From an uncultured Woeseiaceae bacterium (GTDB lineage Bacteria; Acidobacteriota; Vicinamibacteria; Vicinamibacterales; UBA823): a stretch of 64,000 bases of DNA. The stretch is from assembly GCA_964569695.1 (NCBI GenBank), contig CAZMUA010000013.1:20876-84875 (forward strand), written 5' to 3'. Of the stretch, positions 6,428 to 17,103 are shown one piece after another. A model generated the notes under the pieces. It saw nothing but the letters and a program-made list of their open reading frames with translations, ran no database searches and was not told where the DNA came from. Within the stretch, counting starts at the first letter, position 1; each line of letters begins with the position of its first letter. The position numbers were made by a program, and so were the translations under genes.

Positions 6428-8392
6428 TTGATGTCTGGCGACAAGCTTTCGAATCCGGAACAGGAATTGACGGTCGAAATAACAGAGGCTTCTTTCGATT
6501 TGCAGAAGAATCCAAAAGGTGATGTTTCGACTCGAACGTTAACCGGCCCAATTGCCCTGATCGTCACTGCATTGGCAATGGGTTTGTCACTCTACGCTCT
6601 ATACTGGGTCGTCGGCATCATCCAGCCACAGATTTATCGCGTTAGCTTTCTCCTGATCACGCTGGTACTGATTTTTCTTATTTTTCCTGCACACGCTAGG
6701 TGGCAAGCGCGAATCACATGGTCAGACTGGCTGCTAGCCTTTGCAACATTCGTCGCCCTCGTATGGCCGATTATCGATTTTGACCGTTTTGTTTATCGAG
6801 CTGCTACCCCAACGAACGCCGACTTAACACTCGGCATCATCACAACCTTGTTGGTTCTGGAAGCGACGCGTAGAACCGTCGGTCCGATTTTACCGGTCAC
6901 GGCTGTATTTTTCCTTCTGTATGCCTACCTCGGACCATTCTTGGAACTAATTGGTCTTGAGTTATTTGCACATCGAGGCTATGACGTTGCCCGGCTTATC
7001 GGCACCCTGTACATGACATTGGAAGGAATCTTCGGTGTGCCTCTGAATGTAGCTGCAACCTTCATTGTGCTATTCACAGTCTTCGGTGCCGTCCTTGCGC
7101 ACTCGGGCGCAGGTCAGTTCTTCATCACCTGGACAATGGCGGCGTTCGGCCGATCAAATAGTGGAGCTGGTACGGGTCGAACCGTCACACTGTCGGGATT
7201 TTTATTAGGCACTGTTTCCGGGAGTGGCGTTGCAACCACCGTAACACTTGGGTCGATTGCGTGGCCGTTACTGAAAAGAGCCGGGTTCTCAGCAGAAGTA
7301 AGCGGCGGCATTCTTTCAGCGAGTGGCATCGGAGCCATTATGGCGCCGCCGACCATGGGTGCAGCAGCCTTCCTAATCGCTGAGTTCCTACAGATCACCT
7401 ATTTGCAGGTCATCGTGATGGCGATAGTGCCAGCTTGTTTATATTACCTGTCCATTGTCTTGATGATCGAAGCGGACGCCCGACGACTAAAAACCAAAGC
7501 AGTCGACATGGCGGTGCCATCTGTTGGCAAGCTTACACGACAGTCGGGATATCAATTCCTCCCTCTTTTGGCGATAGTCATTTTTCTACTGAGTGGCATT
7601 ACGCCATTTCGAGCGGTGTTTCTGTCAACGATGCTAGCAATCGGCCTTAGCTTCATTCATCGCGAGCATGCCTTGACACCAAAACGGCTTATCGCCGCAC
7701 TAGAGGCAGGAGGTCGAGGAGTCTTACCAATCGCAGCCACAACTGCAACAGCAGGCATTATCGTTGGAGTTGTCACGTTAACTGGTCTTGGACTCAAGAT
7801 CGCAGGCATTATTGTCGCAATCGCTGATGGGAGTGTCTTCTTAACCGTCATTTATTCTGCCGTTGCGGTCTGGATGCTTGGATTGGCTGTGCCAGTTACT
7901 GCTTCCTACATTATTGCTGCTGTTATGATTGCCCCTGCACTTACCCTCGTCGGGGTGCCAGTCTTCGCCGCACACATGTTTATTTTTTATTACGCGGTAC
8001 TCTCCGAAGTGAGTCCTCCCACTGCACTATCACCATTTGCAGCCGCAGCAATCACAGGTGGTAATCCCTTCAAGACAATGATGTTGACCTGGAAGTACAC
8101 CCTTCCAGCATTTCTAGTACCGTTTGCCTTCACGTTGAGCCCTGAGGGAACTGGGGTGTTACTCCAAGCGCCATTTACACACATCATCCGTACGGTCGGC
8201 ACTGCAGTTATTGGCGTCAGTGCACTGGCGATGGGACTTGGTGGTTGGCTGGTACGACCAACTACCATGGTTGAACGGGTTATGGCAGTAGCTGGAGGTC
8301 TGCTACTCTTTTACGCAACGACTGTGACCGATATCATCGGATTATCCTTGTTTGGAGCAGCTATCACGCTGCATCTTTTTCGAAAAAACTGA
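6428..8392 (+). CDS. TRAP transporter fused 4TM/12TM permease (TAXI-associated)
   Basis: Highly hydrophobic; EATRR, EGIFGVPL, GTVSGSGVA, PPTMGAAAF, SEVSPPTAL; follows the TAXI receptor. Confidence 0.92.
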   Translation: MMSGDKLSNPEQELTVEITEASFDLQKNPKGDVSTRTLTGPIALIVTALAMGLSLYALYWVVGIIQPQIYRVSFLLITLVLIFLIFPAHARWQARITWSDWLLAFATFVALVWPIIDFDRFVYRAATPTNADLTLGIITTLLVLEATRRTVGPILPVTAVFFLLYAYLGPFLELIGLELFAHRGYDVARLIGTLYMTLEGIFGVPLNVAATFIVLFTVFGAVLAHSGAGQFFITWTMAAFGRSNSGAGTGRTVTLSGFLLGTVSGSGVATTVTLGSIAWPLLKRAGFSAEVSGGILSASGIGAIMAPPTMGAAAFLIAEFLQITYLQVIVMAIVPACLYYLSIVLMIEADARRLKTKAVDMAVPSVGKLTRQSGYQFLPLLAIVIFLLSGITPFRAVFLSTMLAIGLSFIHREHALTPKRLIAALEAGGRGVLPIAATTATAGIIVGVVTLTGLGLKIAGIIVAIADGSVFLTVIYSAVAVWMLGLAVPVTASYIIAAVMIAPALTLVGVPVFAAHMFIFYYAVLSEVSPPTALSPFAAAAITGGNPFKTMMLTWKYTLPAFLVPFAFTLSPEGTGVLLQAPFTHIIRTVGTAVIGVSALAMGLGGWLVRPTTMVERVMAVAGGLLLFYATTVTDIIGLSLFGAAITLHLFRKN

Positions 8393-8401
8393 GACGTTAT
8401 C

Positions 8402-9709
8402 ATGCCCTTATACCTGAAGATTGCATTTGCTGCTGCCTTTGTTCTCGTTGCTGAGCCGCTCGTCGCGCAAAGGCTGATGCCAGCACAACCAGAGACAGTA
8501 GGCATGTCATCCGAGCGACTCGAACGACTGACAGAGTCATTACAGGATTATGTCGATGACAACCGGCTTGCTGGCGCTGTGGCCCTAGTTGTACGGCGCG
8601 GAAAGATCGCTTATCTGGAGGCTGTCGGTTTTCGAGACAAGGAAATGGATGCGCCAATGTTCACTGATACAATTTTTCGAATCGCATCGCAAACAAAAGC
8701 TCTAGTCAGTGTCGGCGTAATGATGCATCAGGAAGAAGGTGAACTCCTCATCACCGATTCAGTTGGAAAATATCTTCCAGAATTCATGCACACCACCGTG
8801 GCGGAACCCAACGACCGTGAAAGTTACAGCGTGGTAGCTGCAAATAGACCGATCACCATCCAAGATCTCCTGACTCATACGGCTGGTATCAGTTACGGTA
8901 GTGGGCCAGCCTCTAGGGAATGGGAAGAAGCCGCAATCACGGGTTGGTACTTCGCAAACCGTAGCGAATCAGTTAGGGAAGTGATGAACAGGCTTGCCAA
9001 ACTACCTTTCGATGCTCATCCTGGCGAGCAGTGGGTCTACGGCTATAACACTGACATCCTCGGTGTTTTGATCGAGCAAATTAGCGGTCAGACCCTGGCT
9101 GATTTTCTCAACGAACGTCTATTTCAGCCACTGCAACTTCGTGATAGTCACTTTTTCCTTCCACCAGAAAAGGTCGAGCGTCTGGCGACGGTCTATTCCT
9201 CAACCGATGATGGGAGCGTTGATCGCGCACCAGACCCTGGGCATAAAGCAGCCATTCCTAATTATGGGTACGAGTGTGTTGAGTGTGCGAATCAAGGTTC
9301 GTACATAAATGGACCGCGGAAGAGCTTCTCAGGTGGTGCAGGGCTTCTTTCAACGGCTACTGATTACGCCACATTTCTGCAGATGCTACTGAATGGTGGC
9401 GATCTTCAAGGCAAACGAATCTTGACACGCAAGACTGTCGAATTAATGACTGTCGATCACACTGGAGATATTCCGTACCAGCCAGGTCAAGGTTTCGGAC
9501 TTGGGTTCTCGATCCTGGAAGACCCTGCTGCAACCGGACTTCCCTCTTCGGTTGGTGAATATGGTTGGGGGGGTGCCTATCATTCGACTTATTGGGTTGA
9601 CCCAGTAGAAGAACTGGTTGTCGTGTACATGACGCAATTGATTCCAGCGATAGACATTGACGACCACGGCAAGTTACGCACACTTATCTATCAGTCAATT
9701 ATCGACTAA
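8402..9709 (+). CDS. Exported serine hydrolase, beta-lactamase class C / D-peptidase family
   Basis: Signal peptide; FRIASQTK (SxxK); LLTHTAG; PGEQWVYG; GGAGLLST; WGGAYHS. Confidence 0.9.
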   Translation: MPLYLKIAFAAAFVLVAEPLVAQRLMPAQPETVGMSSERLERLTESLQDYVDDNRLAGAVALVVRRGKIAYLEAVGFRDKEMDAPMFTDTIFRIASQTKALVSVGVMMHQEEGELLITDSVGKYLPEFMHTTVAEPNDRESYSVVAANRPITIQDLLTHTAGISYGSGPASREWEEAAITGWYFANRSESVREVMNRLAKLPFDAHPGEQWVYGYNTDILGVLIEQISGQTLADFLNERLFQPLQLRDSHFFLPPEKVERLATVYSSTDDGSVDRAPDPGHKAAIPNYGYECVECANQGSYINGPRKSFSGGAGLLSTATDYATFLQMLLNGGDLQGKRILTRKTVELMTVDHTGDIPYQPGQGFGLGFSILEDPAATGLPSSVGEYGWGGAYHSTYWVDPVEELVVVYMTQLIPAIDIDDHGKLRTLIYQSIID

Positions 9710-9716
9710 CACAATT

Positions 9717-10739
9717 ATGAAAAAGTTGCGCATCCTCGCATTGATGCATGATTACCTAGTCCCACCAACGGACACGTCAGGATTCGACTTGGCGACCGTG
9801 GAGTGGAAAACTGAATTTGATGTGATGTCAACACTGATTGACATGGGACACGACGTCTACCAACTCGGAATTAATGATGAACTCGGGAAGATTCAAGAGG
9901 CAATCAACAAACAGCGCCCTCATATCGCATTCAACTTACTTGAAGCTTTCAATGAAACTAGTTCCTTTGATCAGAATCTCGTGGCATACCTTGAACTTCT
10001 GCGGGTGCCATACACTGGCTGCAATCCAAGAGGCTTACTACTCTCTCGAGACAAAGCATTATCCAAAAAACTACTCGCGTACCATAAGATTCCTATTCCA
10101 GACTTTACTGTGTATCGGATCGGTCAAACGGTCCGCCGGCCAATAAATATCCAATTCCCGCTCATTGTAAAATCACTGACGCAAGACGCTTCCATTGGGA
10201 TATCTCAGGCTTCCGTTGTACACGACCACGACAAACTGCGAGAGCGGGTCAAATTTATCCACAACCACATTGGAACAGACGCGATCATTGAACGCTACAT
10301 TGAAGGACGGGAATTATACGTTGGTATTCTTGGGAACGAGCGCTTAACCACTTTTCCAATTTGGGAGTTAAAGTTGTCAAAAATGCCTAACTCCGTGCAT
10401 CGAATCGCCACCGACCGCGTCAAGTGGAATTCCAAATATCAGCGAAAGCATGGAATCGATGCGGGCGCCGCCAACAACATCTCGCCGGCCCTTACCACGA
10501 CAATCCAGCAAGTTTGCCGGCAAGTATACCGGACGCTTGACTTGAGCGGCTATGCCAGGATCGATCTGCGACTCGATAATGAAAACCGCTTTTATGTGCT
10601 TGAGGCGAACCCAAACCCTCAAATCTCGTGGGGAGAGGATTTTGCTGAATCGGCAGAATTTGATGGTTTGCCGTACGAAGCCTTACTCCAGCGAATACTC
10701 AACAATGGGCTCACTTGGAAACCTGACCATCGAGGGTAA
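9717..10739 (+). CDS. D-Ala-D-Ala ligase-like ATP-grasp protein
   Basis: PYTGC, DKALSK, PLIVK, SIGIS, IERYIEGRE, GYARIDLR, LEANPNP; start at ATG 9717 (MKKLRIL) just after the upstream stop. Confidence 0.82.
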   Translation: MKKLRILALMHDYLVPPTDTSGFDLATVEWKTEFDVMSTLIDMGHDVYQLGINDELGKIQEAINKQRPHIAFNLLEAFNETSSFDQNLVAYLELLRVPYTGCNPRGLLLSRDKALSKKLLAYHKIPIPDFTVYRIGQTVRRPINIQFPLIVKSLTQDASIGISQASVVHDHDKLRERVKFIHNHIGTDAIIERYIEGRELYVGILGNERLTTFPIWELKLSKMPNSVHRIATDRVKWNSKYQRKHGIDAGAANNISPALTTTIQQVCRQVYRTLDLSGYARIDLRLDNENRFYVLEANPNPQISWGEDFAESAEFDGLPYEALLQRILNNGLTWKPDHRG

Positions 10740-10778: not shown

Positions 10779-11894
10779 CTAAAACATTCGGCTGACGAGC
10801 TCTCCAATCACGTAACCAACAGCGGCAACTCCGATTCCAACAACGAACATATCCCGTCCGCTGACCCAGATACCCCGACCTGTAAAAAGACTTCGTGCAG
10901 CACCTACAGCAAAATGGGCTGACATCGAAGCTATGAAAGAAACCCATTTGGCTGACTCCATTGGTAGTATGAGAAACGGGACAATGGGAATGAAGGCACC
11001 AACAGCAGTTGCACTTCCGGTCACCCAACCGTCAGCCATCGGAGCCAAGTCTGCCGCTTTAAGGTTTAGTTCCTCACGAACTTTCGCCTCAAGTGCTCCT
11101 GCAGGTTCCTTCATGATGAGTCGCGCGATTTCTCTTGCGGTGTCGATAGGTAAACCCTTGGCTTCGTAAATGAGCGCAAGTTCTTCTTGTTCAATGTCCG
11201 GCATCAATTCCAGTTCGTGCCGCTCCATTTCAACCTGGTGTGCGTAAACTTCCGCTTCACTCTTAGCTGCTAAATAGCCACTTGCCCCCATCGAAAGCGC
11301 GTCGGCAATCGCCCCGGCAATACCGGTTATCATCACCACTGCTGGCGAAACACTCGCACCAATTACACCAGCGACTAAACCAAAATTTGCTGTTAGACCA
11401 TCATTAAAACCGTAGACAACACAACGAAGATAACCACTGACGGCTCCTCCGTGCCATGGTTCGCTATCACGCCCGAGCAAGACTGAGAGTTCACGAGCAT
11501 GCTCGGCAGTTTCAGCGGCAATCCGAAATGCTTCCTCGTGCAAACGCGCCGGCCCTGCACCGGACGCGAGCTGTAAATATGCATTCACTTCGCGTCCTTC
11601 TTCGGCCAAGATCATCGGCAGGACCGTATTCACACCGAATCGACGCGCCGTCCAAGCTAATCCTCTAGTTCGCCATGAGGGTGCCCATGCCGGTAATACC
11701 CGACCGTGTTCTTTAAATAAATCCACCCATCGGGCGACGTGTCGATCCTCTACTTCGGCAAGACGCGTGAATAAGTCACGACGTTTCGAATCATGCTCTA
11801 GATCACTAAGGGTGCGGTATAAAAAGCCTGCATCTCTTTCGTCACGGTAATGCTCATCCCAACTTTGATTAGAGTCCGTATTAGTAGCTGTCAT
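10779..11894 (-). CDS. Ferritin/rubrerythrin-like N-terminal domain + VIT1/CCC1 iron/manganese transporter
   Basis: Two E...ExxH sets (EVEDRH, ETAEH); VIT1 motifs VVYGFNDGL and ALSMGASGYLAAKSE; Glu-rich cytosolic linker; C-terminal TM helices. Confidence 0.9.
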   Translation of the reverse strand: MTATNTDSNQSWDEHYRDERDAGFLYRTLSDLEHDSKRRDLFTRLAEVEDRHVARWVDLFKEHGRVLPAWAPSWRTRGLAWTARRFGVNTVLPMILAEEGREVNAYLQLASGAGPARLHEEAFRIAAETAEHARELSVLLGRDSEPWHGGAVSGYLRCVVYGFNDGLTANFGLVAGVIGASVSPAVVMITGIAGAIADALSMGASGYLAAKSEAEVYAHQVEMERHELELMPDIEQEELALIYEAKGLPIDTAREIARLIMKEPAGALEAKVREELNLKAADLAPMADGWVTGSATAVGAFIPIVPFLILPMESAKWVSFIASMSAHFAVGAARSLFTGRGIWVSGRDMFVVGIGVAAVGYVIGELVSRMF

Positions 11895-12610
11895 TCTTGC
11901 GCATCCACCTCATGCAGGGTGTACGTCACCGCTGCTGTCCCTTCAGCTTCAACAGTGACAGTGTGATTACTCACACCGAAATACTCATGCCAAATACGAA
12001 TGTCGTAAGTCCCTGCGGGAATGTTATCAAATACGAATGCTCCCTCTGAGGTAGTTACCGCTGAAAGATCAGTTGGCGCGATGACGAACCCACGCATCCA
12101 AGTGTGTGTGTCACAGACTAGTCGAATGACACCTCTAGCTGTTAGTTGTCGAGTGATCGTTAATCCAGGAATCGGAATCGCGACGTTGAAGAGAGACCGG
12201 TCGTCGTCAGCGTAAGCGTGACTTGTGTGCAACACTTCATCGACACTTGTGATCTGGATTTCACCACCTGCACGTCCAAGTTGCACTCGAGGTGAGAATT
12301 GACATCCAACATTCGTGATCGTTGGAGAAACAGCTTCATCCGCTGGCAACCCCACCACCGTCACGACTGCATTAGCCAGTCCACCTAATGCATCGACGAG
12401 CAGAGACTCGTCCGGCACTTCCTGACCGCAGACATCCTGATTTGTCGTGACCGTCAAAGAAGGCAATGGTCCAACGGCCGACGTGCTGACGCGGCCAACA
12501 ATTTTGCCCAGTGACTGTCCATGTAAGCTAGCCACCGAAAAAACGATCACGAGTGCAACACAATTTGCTGCGCTTATGGCGCTGCGCGAATAGGATCGAG
12601 ATACTCCCAT
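11891..12610 (-). CDS. Exported cupredoxin-like (amicyanin/MauL-type Cu motif) protein with a carboxypeptidase-regulatory-like beta-sandwich
   Basis: Hydrophobic N-terminus; CQFSP, LHTSH, CDTHTWM (C-x2-H-x2-M); GAFVFDNIPAGTYDIRIWHE. Confidence 0.72.
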   Translation of the reverse strand: MGVSRSYSRSAISAANCVALVIVFSVASLHGQSLGKIVGRVSTSAVGPLPSLTVTTNQDVCGQEVPDESLLVDALGGLANAVVTVVGLPADEAVSPTITNVGCQFSPRVQLGRAGGEIQITSVDEVLHTSHAYADDDRSLFNVAIPIPGLTITRQLTARGVIRLVCDTHTWMRGFVIAPTDLSAVTTSEGAFVFDNIPAGTYDIRIWHEYFGVSNHTVTVEAEGTAAVTYTLHEVDAQE

Positions 12611-13638
12611 ATCAGATACCCAACTCCTTGTACGTGCTGGCGTTGTCTGTTAAGAATCGGAATGCGTACGCCTAGGGCAATCGCTATCGCGCCTGTACGT
12701 GTAATACCTTTTCTAATCTGTGGCGTGATCGCGAGTCTATCACTGACACCATTAAGTTCTGCACCAACAGTCCAAGTACTAGGCAGTCCTGAAAGGTCTT
12801 TACCAGCATACAGGTTGTAGACAAACTCCAGTTCATCACTGGCTCCCCCAACAGGAAGCTCCAATTTCACCTGACCTTGGATAATCAAGTCTCGCACGCT
12901 AACTCCACTAGAAAGATAAGGCTCAAAGACGGTGGTACCACCACCGAGCCCACTCAACTCACTTCCCGTGGGAAACTTCACCTCTAATCCACCACTAAGA
13001 ATGCGAGTGGATGCCTCATTCGCATGCAGAACATACTTACCGGCAACAGTGAAGTCCCCGAAGCCTGAAGTTCGCCGTGATCCGTCCACTAAACTTTGGA
13101 CAGGAATGCCAATCTCGGCATGGCCTCGTCGGCCAATCCTCCGCTCATAAACCGTTCGAAGCCTCAGGTCAGTGCCACCATCAGCCTTATGCGAAACGCT
13201 TGGCACAATGACGACCTCATTCTCTGGAAAAGCCTTTTCGGTGAAAATGGGTCGAGAAAAATTTAGATTACCTATCGGCCAGCCTGGCTCGTCACAAAAT
13301 GATCTGACGTAACCCACTAGGACCTGAATCTGTTCAGAAGAGAGTGTGTCACCATACCCTGGCATCTGCGACGATAGACCTGCAATTGGACCACCATGAG
13401 CAATCACCAGTTCCCAGTCCGCATCAGGTTCAGATGTCGTTACCGCACAGTCTGTGAAGTCCATTGGCTCAACGGTCACGGTCGGCACCTCAACCAGACC
13501 GGTACCATCCAGAGCATGACAACTCGCGCACCACGCTCCGTACATTTCTGAAGGATCGGTAGGAATCTGTGCACCACAGATTGAAGCGCAACAAAACACA
13601 CTCACAAACACTACCCTTGGCACATAACTCAAGCGCAC
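12574..13638 (-). CDS. Monoheme class I cytochrome c fused to a C-terminal putative outer-membrane beta-barrel
   Basis: Signal peptide; CASCH; distal MPGYG; LSSEQIQVLVGYVRSF helix; C-terminal ~240 aa of alternating amphipathic beta-strands (GFGDFTVAGKY, GLEVKFPTG, GYLIWEY). Confidence 0.75.
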   Translation of the reverse strand: MRLSYVPRVVFVSVFCCASICGAQIPTDPSEMYGAWCASCHALDGTGLVEVPTVTVEPMDFTDCAVTTSEPDADWELVIAHGGPIAGLSSQMPGYGDTLSSEQIQVLVGYVRSFCDEPGWPIGNLNFSRPIFTEKAFPENEVVIVPSVSHKADGGTDLRLRTVYERRIGRRGHAEIGIPVQSLVDGSRRTSGFGDFTVAGKYVLHANEASTRILSGGLEVKFPTGSELSGLGGGTTVFEPYLSSGVSVRDLIIQGQVKLELPVGGASDELEFVYNLYAGKDLSGLPSTWTVGAELNGVSDRLAITPQIRKGITRTGAIAIALGVRIPILNRQRQHVQGVGYLIWEYLDPIRAAP

Positions 13639-13644
13639 AGGCGC

Positions 13645-13673
13645 ACTATAGACACTTCAAGTGCGTCAAACAA
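13645..13673 (-). promoter_or_regulatory. Putative sigma70 promoter of the cytochrome operon (possibly leaderless)
   Basis: Minus strand TTGTTT-N17-TATAGT-N6-GTG start; the spacer holds a CACTT-n-AAGTG palindrome; no SD. Confidence 0.45.
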
Positions 13674-13699
13674 CTACTGATTTGTTCTTAAAGTCAGAC

Positions 13700-13714
13700 T
13701 GAGACTCAATCTCC
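13700..13714. promoter_or_regulatory. Fur/Irr-like 7-1-7 box
   Basis: TGAGACT-C-AATCTCC vs TGAGAAT-n-ATTCTCA (11/14 match), upstream of an operon ending in VIT1. Confidence 0.3.
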
Positions 13715-13757: not shown

Positions 13758-15599
13758 CTATAAGTTCGATGAGTTCTTCGACACAACCTTGGGCACATCA
13801 GGCAAATTAGGAGTGAAATCTTCTCCTGGGTTTATGAATCGATCGCGTTCCAGTTTGTACTGGGTCTCATAAAGCCGATGGTATCGTCCTGATTTCTCAA
13901 GCAAACTGCGATGCGTACCGCGTTCGACAATGCAACCATCCTCAATGACCAAAATTTGATCAGCGCTTTGAATGGTCGACAAACGATGCGCAATAACTAA
14001 CGTTGTCCGACCATGACGTAACGATCTCAGGCCGTCCTGAATCATGGCTTCACTCTCACTATCGAGGCTTGATGTTGCTTCGTCAAGAATCAGAAGTCTC
14101 GGATCGGCCAAAATCGCTCGCGCAATGGCAATCCGCTGCCGTTGTCCACCGGATAATCTGATACCGCGTTCCCCAACAACTGTTTCGTAACCCTTCTCAA
14201 AATTAAGGACAAATTCTTCACAATGCGCAAGACGACCAACCGTTCGAATCTCTTCCAGCGAGGCGTCCATTCGAGCAAATCTAATGTTGTCAGCAACAGT
14301 TCCATCGAATAAAAAATTTTCTTGCAGCACAACCCCCAAGTGCTTCCGATAGTCACGTAACTTCACCGCTTCCAAATCTAGCCCATCTACCAAAATTCGG
14401 CCCTGTTGTGGTCGATTAAACGCCATTACTAGACTAATGAGCGTGCTTTTTCCGGACCCACTAGATCCCACCAACGCAGTCGTCGTCCCGGCTGGCACCT
14501 TGAAAGATAAATTCCGCAAAACTGGAACTCCAGCCGTGTACTCAAAACTAATGTCCTCGCAGGTCACCTCACCTCGCACATTGGGAAGTGGTCGGCGATG
14601 CTCATCTTCTTCGTCCTCGGTAGCCATTCGTCGGATTTCTTGAATCCGATCAAGACCGGCAAAAGCTTCGGTGATCTGGGTCCCAATTGAGGCGATCTGA
14701 ACAAGAGGTGCGGCCATCAAACCCGTAAAGAAAATGTATGCGATCAAATCACCTAGCGTCATGGTCTTGGAAAGAATCGCATTTCCACCAATAACAATGA
14801 TCAGCATGCCAATAATGCCGATGGCCACTGTCGACACCGCGGTAATACCAGACACACCAGTAACTGTTTTAGCAACGTTACGTAACAATCCATGAACACC
14901 ATGCGCGAATACACGCTGCTCCCTCTTCTCGACGGTATAGGCCTTGACAATGCGAATCCCGCCAAGAGTTTCATTTAGACGTCCAGTTACCTCAGCGTTG
15001 ATCTTGCCTCGTTCACGAAATAGAGGCCGCAATCGCCTGAAAGCTATCGCCATGGCACTGGCAAATCCTAACAAAATCACCAGAGTGACTGAGGTCAGTT
15101 GCCAATTTAGATAAAACAAAACAGCGAGTGCGATGAATGCGGTGACAAGACCACCTGTCAACTGCACCAATCCTGTTCCAACCAAATTTCGAATTCCCTC
15201 GGCATCAGTCATGATCCTAGAAATGAGCACGCCGGTTTTAGTCGAATCAAAGTAACCGATCGGTAAACGAGTGACATGGGCTTGCACCCGTTTTCGCATC
15301 TCTGTAATTCCACGCTGCGCCGCAACCCCCAAGACTTGGGATAAAGCAAACGAAGTGGTCGCCTGTATAAGGGTCGCTCCACCGACGGCCAAGGCGAGTG
15401 TAGTTAACAGCTCACCTCTCTGGTTAGCAATGACCTCATCAATTAAGAATTTTGAAGAACCTGGCAACACAAGGCCCGCCAGACGATTGGTTAGCATTAA
15501 GACCATCCCAAATGCTAGACGCCGGCGATAACGCCATAAGAGTTCTTTAGCTTCCGTCCAAGCGCCGCTCGAAAATCGAGACTTCGTGTCACGCAACAT
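13758..15599 (-). CDS. ABC exporter, fused permease/ATPase (MsbA/Sav1866 class)
   Basis: N-terminal TM domain; GSSGSGKS, LSGGQRQR, LILDEATS, IAHR. Confidence 0.93.
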   Translation of the reverse strand: MLRDTKSRFSSGAWTEAKELLWRYRRRLAFGMVLMLTNRLAGLVLPGSSKFLIDEVIANQRGELLTTLALAVGGATLIQATTSFALSQVLGVAAQRGITEMRKRVQAHVTRLPIGYFDSTKTGVLISRIMTDAEGIRNLVGTGLVQLTGGLVTAFIALAVLFYLNWQLTSVTLVILLGFASAMAIAFRRLRPLFRERGKINAEVTGRLNETLGGIRIVKAYTVEKREQRVFAHGVHGLLRNVAKTVTGVSGITAVSTVAIGIIGMLIIVIGGNAILSKTMTLGDLIAYIFFTGLMAAPLVQIASIGTQITEAFAGLDRIQEIRRMATEDEEDEHRRPLPNVRGEVTCEDISFEYTAGVPVLRNLSFKVPAGTTTALVGSSGSGKSTLISLVMAFNRPQQGRILVDGLDLEAVKLRDYRKHLGVVLQENFLFDGTVADNIRFARMDASLEEIRTVGRLAHCEEFVLNFEKGYETVVGERGIRLSGGQRQRIAIARAILADPRLLILDEATSSLDSESEAMIQDGLRSLRHGRTTLVIAHRLSTIQSADQILVIEDGCIVERGTHRSLLEKSGRYHRLYETQYKLERDRFINPGEDFTPNLPDVPKVVSKNSSNL

Positions 15600-15693: not shown

Positions 15694-17103
15694 TTGTTTA
15701 CAACACCTCGACAATTCCCACTTGTGCTCATAGCAACTTGCTTCCTGGCTATAACCGTGCATGAAGAATCATTTAGAGCCTCAAGTGACACGCAGCCGTC
15801 TGCAACCTGGCTGGAAGAGTACCGAGAACCGGCCAGTCGAATCATTGGCGAAGCTCTTTCAGACACCTTTGCCTACCGAAGACTCGCTGAACTTGGTGAT
15901 ACGTTTGGCCATCGATTGAGTGGTTCGCCTCAGTTAGAGCGCGCGATCCAGTGGGCTGCTGACCAAATGCGGATTGACGGATTAGAGAGCGTCCGTCTCG
16001 AACCCGTCATGGTGCCACACTGGGTACGCGGCCATGAACGCGCAACTCTCGTCAGACCAGAACCGCAAGACCTAGTCATGCTTGGACTCGGCGGCAGTAT
16101 AGGCACACCGCCAGAAGGTATCGAAGCCTCCACAATCGTCGTAAATAGCTTCGATGAACTTGATGCATTATCGCAGGATATAGAAGGCAAAATCGTTGTG
16201 TACAACGTTCCATTCACGAACTATGGGCAGACTGTCCGTTACCGTACAACCGGAGCCTCACGAGCCGCACGTCATGGCGCAGTAGCTGCTTTGGTCCGCT
16301 CAGTCGGCCCCACAGGATTTCGAACGCCCCACACCGGAAATATGGGATACACAGAACGCGATCCAAAAATCCCAATGGCTGCTATAACTGCGGAAGACGC
16401 TGAACTTCTGCAGCGCCTGCAGGACAAAAATATGCCAGCCGTGGTTAACCTCATGATGGAAGCCCACACCCTTCCAGATGCTGAGTCAGCAAATGTCATT
16501 GGCGAAATCCGTGGACGAGAATTACCAGATGAAGTCGTCGTCATTGGAGGACACATCGATTCATGGGACGTCGGGACAGGTTCAACTGATGATGGCGGCG
16601 GTTCAATCGCAACATGGGACGCACTCAGAATCATCAAACGCTTGAACTTGAGACCGCGACGCACCTTAAGAGTCGTCCTGTGGACGAATGAAGAGAACGG
16701 CTTTCGCGGTGCATTCGCATATCGAGACCGCTACCGCGAGGCGCTTCCGAATCACGTAATGATGCTGGAGTCAGACTCCGGTGTTTTCGAACCGAGAGGA
16801 TTCGGTTTTACTGGCAGTGACCGTGCACGAACGACCGTCACTGAAATCGCGTCCTTGCTACAAGGAGTCGGCGCCAGTTGGATTGGGCCAAACGGTGGAG
16901 GTGCCGATATAGGCCCGAGTGTTCGCGCAGCCAATATACCCGCCATGTCGTTGGCTGTCGACGAATCACGGTACTTTTCGATTCACCATACGCCGGCTGA
17001 CACCATCGACAAGATTAACCCAACCGACCTAGCGCGAAATGTTGCTGCAATCGCTGTAATGGCCTACGTTGTCGCTGACATGCCAACAAGGCTCGGAAAA
17101 TAG
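15694..17103 (+). CDS. Exported M28 metallopeptidase (carboxypeptidase Q-like, PA domain)
   Basis: GHRLSGS, GHIDSWD, DDGGG, NEENG, ESDSG, HHTPAD; GGAGG SD before TTG. Confidence 0.9.
   Translation: MFTTPRQFPLVLIATCFLAITVHEESFRASSDTQPSATWLEEYREPASRIIGEALSDTFAYRRLAELGDTFGHRLSGSPQLERAIQWAADQMRIDGLESVRLEPVMVPHWVRGHERATLVRPEPQDLVMLGLGGSIGTPPEGIEASTIVVNSFDELDALSQDIEGKIVVYNVPFTNYGQTVRYRTTGASRAARHGAVAALVRSVGPTGFRTPHTGNMGYTERDPKIPMAAITAEDAELLQRLQDKNMPAVVNLMMEAHTLPDAESANVIGEIRGRELPDEVVVIGGHIDSWDVGTGSTDDGGGSIATWDALRIIKRLNLRPRRTLRVVLWTNEENGFRGAFAYRDRYREALPNHVMMLESDSGVFEPRGFGFTGSDRARTTVTEIASLLQGVGASWIGPNGGGADIGPSVRAANIPAMSLAVDESRYFSIHHTPADTIDKINPTDLARNVAAIAVMAYVVADMPTRLGK

Follow-up and report, generated by a model that had tools for sequence, protein, structure and literature searches.

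What does a bacterium achieve by placing in one predicted operon the genes for a cytochrome c-barrel fusion, for a blue-copper protein and for an iron exporter? The question arises from a locus in a 64,000-nucleotide stretch of contig CAZMUA010000013.1 (the window, by which we mean this whole stretch). The host genome (2.49 Mb, 97% complete) comes from marine water, and its closest named records are metagenome-assembled genomes of marine Acidobacteriota/Vicinamibacterales. Soil, groundwater and the ocean all commonly harbour Vicinamibacterales-like Acidobacteriota, yet to our knowledge almost nothing is known of the metal physiology of this group. Three co-oriented open reading frames (ORFs), here called G1, G2 and G3, lie on the minus strand of the window, with overlaps of 37 nt between G1 and G2 and of 4 nt between G2 and G3, just as an initial annotation made from the letters alone had described them. 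The gene families, the neighbourhoods of their relatives and a conserved operator point to an operon that probably handles excess iron. That it does so by an Fe(II) oxidation and export response, induced when iron is replete, is the reading we prefer, tentatively and at somewhat less than an even chance.

G1 has relatives in 325 species-representative genomes, and the neighbourhood counts given here refer to the best 80 G1 loci. Among the 38 loci at 47% identity or more, G2 stood directly after G1 in 34; three of the others (L006-L008) were without G2 and one (L037) stops at a contig edge. In the 42 loci of a sister subfamily, at about 36% identity, G2 was never found after G1. Instead, the gene directly after G1 in 37 of these 42 loci had a product about 550-580 aa long, and 36 of the 37 products contain five CxxCH motifs. 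This pentahaem partner is secreted and conserved (L039-L080, at about 7000-8800 of each locus), and it faintly resembled ExtKL, MtrC domain II/IV and a solved cytochrome c552 (5ze8_A), with every score far below the family cut-offs; in four sister loci a DUF2231/TPR membrane protein came next after it. Since G1 is followed by G2 in the closer loci and by the pentahaem cytochrome in the sister loci, it travels with a redox partner, and what these gene orders conserve is G1 together with a secreted protein of that kind. A VIT1 gene followed the pair in only 4 of the 80 loci (L002, L003, L004 and L034), all from the closest marine clade, whose members also have the ABC and ddl-like flanking genes in common; L005 has the order ABC-G1-G2-ddl without VIT1. 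The comparison of loci thus marks G3 as the addition of one marine family to the pair. The cytochrome-barrel and blue-copper genes form a conserved pair, and the neighbourhood check spoke against the trio as a conserved module.

G1 starts with a hydrophobic segment, common to the members of its family, that reads as a candidate signal peptide. PF13442 matched aa 28-111 at 30.1 bits against a cut-off of 27 bits and matched all 60 aligned relatives, each of the 60 family members having exactly one CxxCH; C37, C40, H41 and M92-P93, and also C64 and C115, were invariant in the alignment. With a score above gathering, a CxxCH and a distal Met, G1 is by sequence a class I cytochrome c. The linker FTEKAFPENE after the haem domain was the most conserved stretch of the entire protein, and alternating hydropathy gave a sequence estimate of about 12 amphipathic strands at aa 141-347, whose polar faces hold eight conserved acidic residues (E141, E165, E175, D195, E219, E239, E260 and E294). 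The initial description of an exported monohaem class I cytochrome c joined to amphipathic beta-strands therefore stands. A search with the outer-membrane barrel family PF13557 (Phenol_MetA_deg), which had been put forward for this domain, gave a mixed result: 29 of the 60 relatives matched at E ≤ 0.001 (best 1.3e-7), but the window protein stayed below threshold (E 0.008-0.017, 15.6-16.7 bits against a gathering score of 22 bits). The barrel thus appears to be distantly PF13557-like; among solved structures none matched it by sequence.

A profile of the barrel alone matched 1392 cluster representatives at E ≤ 0.001, 198 of them at E ≤ 1e-30. Apparent stand-alone barrels among the matches were rejected as such, as nine of the ten inspected keep the end of the cytochrome domain and are N-terminally cut fusions, five of those inspected beginning at the axial Met-Pro. 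Long matches with extra CxxCH motifs align to the barrel in part only and may be miscalled. The ESM Atlas also contains an Acidobacteriota cluster (50 members; representative 453 aa) whose proteins join a class I cytochrome c to a different barrel domain, DUF5777 (PF19089); given this second type, cytochrome-barrel fusions may have arisen more than once. A literature search found no description of the G1 family, and likewise nothing relevant on cytochrome fusions to PF13557. By the usual topology of barrels the haem of G1 would be periplasmic, because the haem domain precedes the first of the 12 or so predicted strands. The claim that metal is oxidised at the cell surface lost its footing here, as nothing puts the haem there.

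G2 has a signal-like segment at its N-terminus, as read from the sequence. H128 and C166-x2-H169-x2-M172 are conserved in the family and the motif was present in 33 of the 33 orthologues that cover the loop, so that the amicyanin-type type-1 copper spacing first seen in the window protein is a family trait. The G2 family profile matched solved type-1 copper domains (9cck_A, E 1.2e-5; 5fc9_A, 2e-4; amicyanins, about 2e-3); the Pfam cupredoxin models gave no match to the window protein itself. By its ligand set G2 is a type-1 copper cupredoxin, with copper binding predicted. A CarboxypepD_reg domain, which the initial annotation had not noted, was found in 38 of 39 G2 members. The host genome encodes three further G2-like paralogues (C4:51296-52129, C25:13142-13774 and C26:2217-2879). 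Judged from N-terminal sequences alone, one of them appears to lie ahead of haem A/O synthase-like genes, and another appears in a nos-accessory-like cluster with a TAT-signal protein and a large Fe-S membrane protein.

In G3, the residues E19, E49-x-x-H52, E99 and H132 were invariant and the position four before H132 was always E or D. The Rubrerythrin model matched its N-terminal domain weakly (E 0.031, below cut-off), and the C-terminal part is a VIT1/CCC1 domain (Table 1), in accord with the proposed fusion of a diiron ferritin-like domain to such a transporter. An N-terminal ferritin-like domain followed by a VIT1 domain is the architecture given for MbfA in the available part of PMC7762939. 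G3 has this MbfA/Er-VIT1 architecture, from which iron export is predicted, and at this locus the 4-nt overlap couples it translationally to the G1-G2 pair.

Table 1. Positions in the window of the three genes, their domains and the upstream control elements
Feature	Position	Strand	Details
G1	12574-13638	-	354 aa, cytochrome c-barrel fusion
G1 signal peptide	13567-13638	-	aa 1-24, ends ...CGA, followed by Q; candidate, read from the translation
G1 class I monohaem cytochrome c domain	13288-13566	-	aa 25-117; C37-A-S-C40-H41, M92-P93, C64, C115
G1 linker motif FTEKAFPENE and ~12-strand beta-barrel	12577-13287	-	aa 118-354
G2	11891-12610	-	239 aa, type-1-copper cupredoxin
G2 cupredoxin domain	12083-12508	-	predicted type-1 copper ligands H128, C166, H169, M172
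G2 CarboxypepD_reg-like beta-sandwich	11909-12082	-	C-terminal; conserved WHE motif
G3	10779-11894	-	371 aa, MbfA-type ferritin-like/VIT1
G3 ferritin-like (erythrin-type) domain	11445-11894	-	N-terminal; putatively cytoplasmic
G3 VIT1/CCC1 membrane domain	10803-11429	-	aa 156-364; VIT1 E 2e-56
17-bp palindromic operator (candidate)	13696-13712	-	AGATTGAGTCTCAGTCT here; consensus AGACTGAGTCTCAGTCT
Promoter (predicted)	13645-13673	-	-35 TTGTTT 13668-13673, 17-nt spacer, -10 TATAGT 13645-13650

Seven orthologous upstream regions of G1 share three blocks, namely a palindrome, TTG and CTATAGTG. TTG and CTATAGTG are invariant columns, the palindrome is conserved in all seven regions, and the flanks are otherwise poorly conserved. 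At G1 the elements follow in the order operator, 22 nt, -35, 17 nt, -10 and start codon. The GTG start lies 6 nt past the -10 here and 6-9 nt past it in each orthologue, and because this distance is only 6 nt the mRNA of the operon is probably leaderless. A Fur-like box had been reported upstream of the operon. As a match to the 19-bp E. coli Fur consensus it did not hold: the whole window contained no match at up to 3 mismatches, and the best match upstream of G1 had 7 mismatches, which is chance level, as 46 of 537 window tiles do equally well. What remained of that report is the conserved palindrome at the same spot. Many operator sites extend to a third CTCAnT hexamer; the layout of hexamer repeats is that of the Fur box, but the letters differ. 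A literature search for an acidobacterial Fur box found nothing relevant.

The palindrome was enriched in 31 related genomes, with 51 matches against 8 for the control at up to 2 mismatches. It was found beside FeoAB at five sites (L093, L114, L115, L117 and L118), beside FTR1 at L094 and at L091 of the host genome, beside TonB-dependent receptors (L097, L098, L111, L112 and L113), beside PepSY_TM at L105 and beside G1 itself in seven genomes. Three of 30 ferritin-family loci carried it as well, two of them bacterioferritins (L156 and L158) and one a ferritin-like gene (L166, 4 mismatches). Several 'unknown' ORFs next to operator sites resemble antisense artefacts produced by simple ORF calling. 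Preceding as it does genes for iron uptake and for iron storage, the operator is a candidate iron-responsive site, which the operon shares with the iron genes of relatives. The operon therefore probably belongs to the iron regulon of the organism, with the single clear Fur-family protein of the host genome as candidate regulator; one marginal DtxR-like match is also present there. Thirteen of the 80 G1 loci had an operator (up to 4 mismatches, within 350 nt upstream) against a background of 2 matches in 890 kb, and these thirteen comprise every one of the 6 marine-clade loci, a further 6 from the pentahaem subfamily, and L011.

Within the host genome itself, matches to the full palindrome at 3 mismatches were no more frequent than the control rate, and the core TGAGnCTCA alone was not enriched (30 found, 38 expected). 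One operator-like site with 3 mismatches (C15:43522-43538), 26 nt before the FTR1 gene, stood out by its position and by a shared 13-mer that has three copies in the genome; the third copy, at C2:97809, has no clear gene context. Further operator sites merit mention in their own right. In the related genome G007, the site at L105 lies between a PQQ dehydrogenase gene and the PepSY_TM gene. Directly beside operator sites at L095:1523-2974 and L096:95-1495 is the gene for a secreted protein, about 470 aa long, that belongs to no Pfam family and shows 59% identity between the two genomes; this protein is a candidate member of the iron regulon. At G008:C8:100512-101346 a G2 orthologue has an operator about 140 nt upstream, but that genome gave no match to G1 at E ≤ 1e-20, so a link of G2 to the iron operator does not require G1.

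The position of the operator relative to the promoter may indicate the sign of regulation. In the 11 Feo, FTR1 and TonB-receptor promoters examined, TTGACx-17-TAnAnT lay just upstream and the operator covered the predicted start site. At G1 the order was reversed, with the operator before the promoter in 4 of 4 loci, and the operator was likewise upstream of the promoter in all three ferritin-family loci that bear it. For Fur, activated genes such as ftnA and norB carry upstream boxes and repressed genes carry boxes that overlap the promoter, according to the available part of PMC3788343. Because the operator lies upstream of the -35, as at the bacterioferritins, and not over the start, we infer by analogy that the operon is switched on by the iron-loaded regulator when iron is plentiful.

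Taken together, these features suggest the following mechanism. G3 would move Fe2+ from the cytoplasm to the periplasm. The small barrel of about 12 strands would hold the haem domain of G1 against the outer membrane on its periplasmic side, and G2 would serve as a secreted type-1 copper electron carrier. This copper/haem pair would oxidise the exported Fe2+ in the periplasm and pass the electrons towards the single haem-copper oxidase (one COX1 in the genome, which also has cytochrome c maturation genes); the barrel of G1 might perhaps offer cations a path across the outer membrane. The whole would constitute an iron-excess response in a small genome in which no ferritin/Dps (PF00210) match was found.

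Several points weigh against this mechanism. It is read from sequence, and the promoter too was assigned in that way; repression from an upstream site is, moreover, also conceivable. Centres such as one type-1 copper or one haem carry electrons and are not oxidases, and the analysis brought no Fe(II)-binding site to light. The adjacency of VIT1 is limited to one clade with conserved flanks. No operator was found at the stand-alone MbfA orthologues of other families (30 VIT1 loci), and among the ferritin loci the operator was as rare as stated above, one of its three sites having 4 mismatches. As 67 of the 80 G1 loci show no operator at up to 4 mismatches, the iron link may be lineage-specific regulation and not the function of the family. 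Finally, marine water is usually iron-poor, which would better fit a role in uptake.

Such a role is the first alternative. G2 and G1 could serve the FTR1 permease in the periplasm by oxidising its iron and taking up the electrons, with the operon derepressed by iron starvation just as uptake genes are. The host FTR1 (C15:42738-43496) is the only uptake gene of its genome with an operator, and it stands alone: the genome gave no match to P19/FtrA or EfeO M75 and no convincing match to FeoB, for which only generic GTPase matches to FeoB_N were found. FTR1-type systems oxidise Fe2+ through copper proteins such as FtrB, as the available part of PMC11966278 describes, and the organism is marine. 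However, the same operon holds a translationally coupled predicted Fe2+ exporter, the operator is positioned as at storage genes and not as at uptake genes, and G2 has a classical H/C/H/M type-1 site, unlike FtrB, for which the same partial source gives the predicted copper ligands D118 and H121 and a structure distinct from known cupredoxins. We consider an uptake accessory unlikely.

A second alternative is a general periplasmic electron-transfer module that links dehydrogenases to the oxidase, or that carries electrons to or from other extracellular substrates, with iron-sparing expression and VIT1 as a neighbour of convenience. Most G1 loci have neither operator nor VIT1, which agrees with this view. 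G2-like cupredoxin/CarboxypepD_reg proteins are multi-copy and housekeeping-like, being present in 30 of the 31 related genomes, with the paralogue apparently beside haem A/O synthase-like genes as an instance, and iron sparing typically affects haem proteins (PMC3788343, in the part available). The module would, however, leave unexplained the 4-nt overlap of G2 and G3 and the operator before G1 in 6 of the 42 pentahaem loci, although two of these six have 4 mismatches, as does one of the two background matches. G1 itself had no match in 16 of the 31 related genomes at E ≤ 1e-20 and is therefore not part of core respiration. This alternative has a real, if minor, chance of being right.

The surroundings of the operon add some context. 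Upstream on the same strand lies an ABC exporter gene (13758-15599) and downstream a convergent ddl-like ATP-grasp gene (9657-10739); an M28 peptidase is also encoded in the window (15694-17103). About 10 kb from the operon, at 135-2264 on the minus strand, is a gene for a PQQ-dependent dehydrogenase (PF01011, E 2.6e-133), from which periplasmic cytochromes might receive electrons. In the soil and groundwater G1-G2 loci (L009-L038) we observed a convergent PQQ_2 beta-propeller gene in 13 loci, an M28 peptidase with PDZ in 10 and an upstream TonB-dependent receptor with CarboxypepD_reg in 8. Marine RNA libraries contained short Logan contigs at the locus (X8, 12550-12741; X4, 13358-13614), and pieces of the contig X6 span G3, G2 and the 3' end of G1. 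One RNA contig crosses the G1/G2 overlap, which is a weak hint of expression, as Logan contigs give no transcript start, level or strand and the uncovered parts are uninformative.

If the preferred reading of an Fe(II) oxidation and export response is true, the locus would supply a means by which marine bacteria that lack ferritin withstand iron pulses, a second and independent kind of fused cytochrome-barrel beside Cyc2, and the first candidate iron operator for the order Vicinamibacterales, with separate layouts for repression and activation. If it fails, the G1 family still marks an unknown electron-transfer step tethered to the outer membrane. A bolder version, which is speculative and in our view improbable, would place G1 at the centre of an iron valve in the envelope, so far undescribed and widespread among Vicinamibacterales-like Acidobacteriota. 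An inner-membrane Fe2+ exporter, a ferroxidase chain of blue copper and haem, and an outer-membrane channel lined with acidic residues, all switched on by Fe-Fur, would jointly oxidise excess iron and drive it out through both membranes, doing the work of ferritin in streamlined genomes. In the sister subfamily, the pentahaem partner would let the barrel-tethered haem reach extracellular iron.

Among known systems, Cyc2 comes to mind first, since G1 shares with it a signal peptide, a single N-terminal c-type haem, a fused outer-membrane barrel and an adjoining blue-copper gene. This analogous architecture would suit a true Cyc2-like, energy-conserving surface Fe(II) oxidase with G2 in the place of rusticyanin. 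The available part of Keffer et al. 2021 (PMC8406198) characterises Cyc2 by the motif PxFAR[Q/K][T/Y] 5 aa upstream of CxxCH, by PxL, by a 16-stranded porin and by a length of at least 365 aa. Taken as a Cyc2, G1 was rejected: PxFAR[QK][TY] occurred in none of the 60 family members and PxL in none of the 60, the protein has 354 aa and about 12 strands by sequence estimate, and it combines a PF13557-like barrel with a full class I domain (about 90 aa, His/Met-Pro), as the initial annotation had rightly stressed in setting it apart from the short Cyc2 N-terminal motif. Rusticyanin has the ligands Cys138/His143/Met148, that is C-x4-H-x4-M (PMC13741234), whereas G2 has the C-x2-H-x2-M spacing and an additional CarboxypepD_reg domain. 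Because there is one haem-copper oxidase and no RuBisCO match in the 97% complete genome, lithoautotrophic iron oxidation by the host is unlikely, and a Cyc2-like oxidase seems to us highly improbable.

The remaining comparisons each cover one part of the operon. G3 resembles the MbfA/erythrin-VIT1 proteins of Bradyrhizobium and Agrobacterium in its N-terminal di-iron-type ligand set and C-terminal VIT1. The characterised MbfA proteins in the available part of PMC7762939 are all from alpha-proteobacteria and under Irr control, whereas G3 occurs in an acidobacterium, in a predicted operon with two periplasmic redox proteins and behind a different operator. With FtrABCD and EfeUOB the operon shares a periplasmic copper protein under predicted iron regulation, in a genome whose FTR1 has no other known partner; G2, by contrast, is not encoded with FTR1, has the classical type-1 site and is coupled to an exporter. 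The dual-mode Fur regulons of E. coli (ftnA) and Neisseria (norB) show the same arrangement of sites, overlapping at uptake genes and upstream at storage-type genes; in our case AGACTGAGTCTCAGTCT fails the E. coli Fur consensus, and the binding protein would be the candidate regulator named above. The MtrCAB, MtoAB, Pcc and ExtHIJKL systems also pair an outer-membrane barrel with secreted c-type cytochromes. In the Mtr and Pcc conduits a porin of 20 or more strands surrounds a multihaem cytochrome, whereas G1 is monohaem with a barrel region of about 237 aa, too small to house a multihaem wire, unlike the porin-cytochrome conduits.

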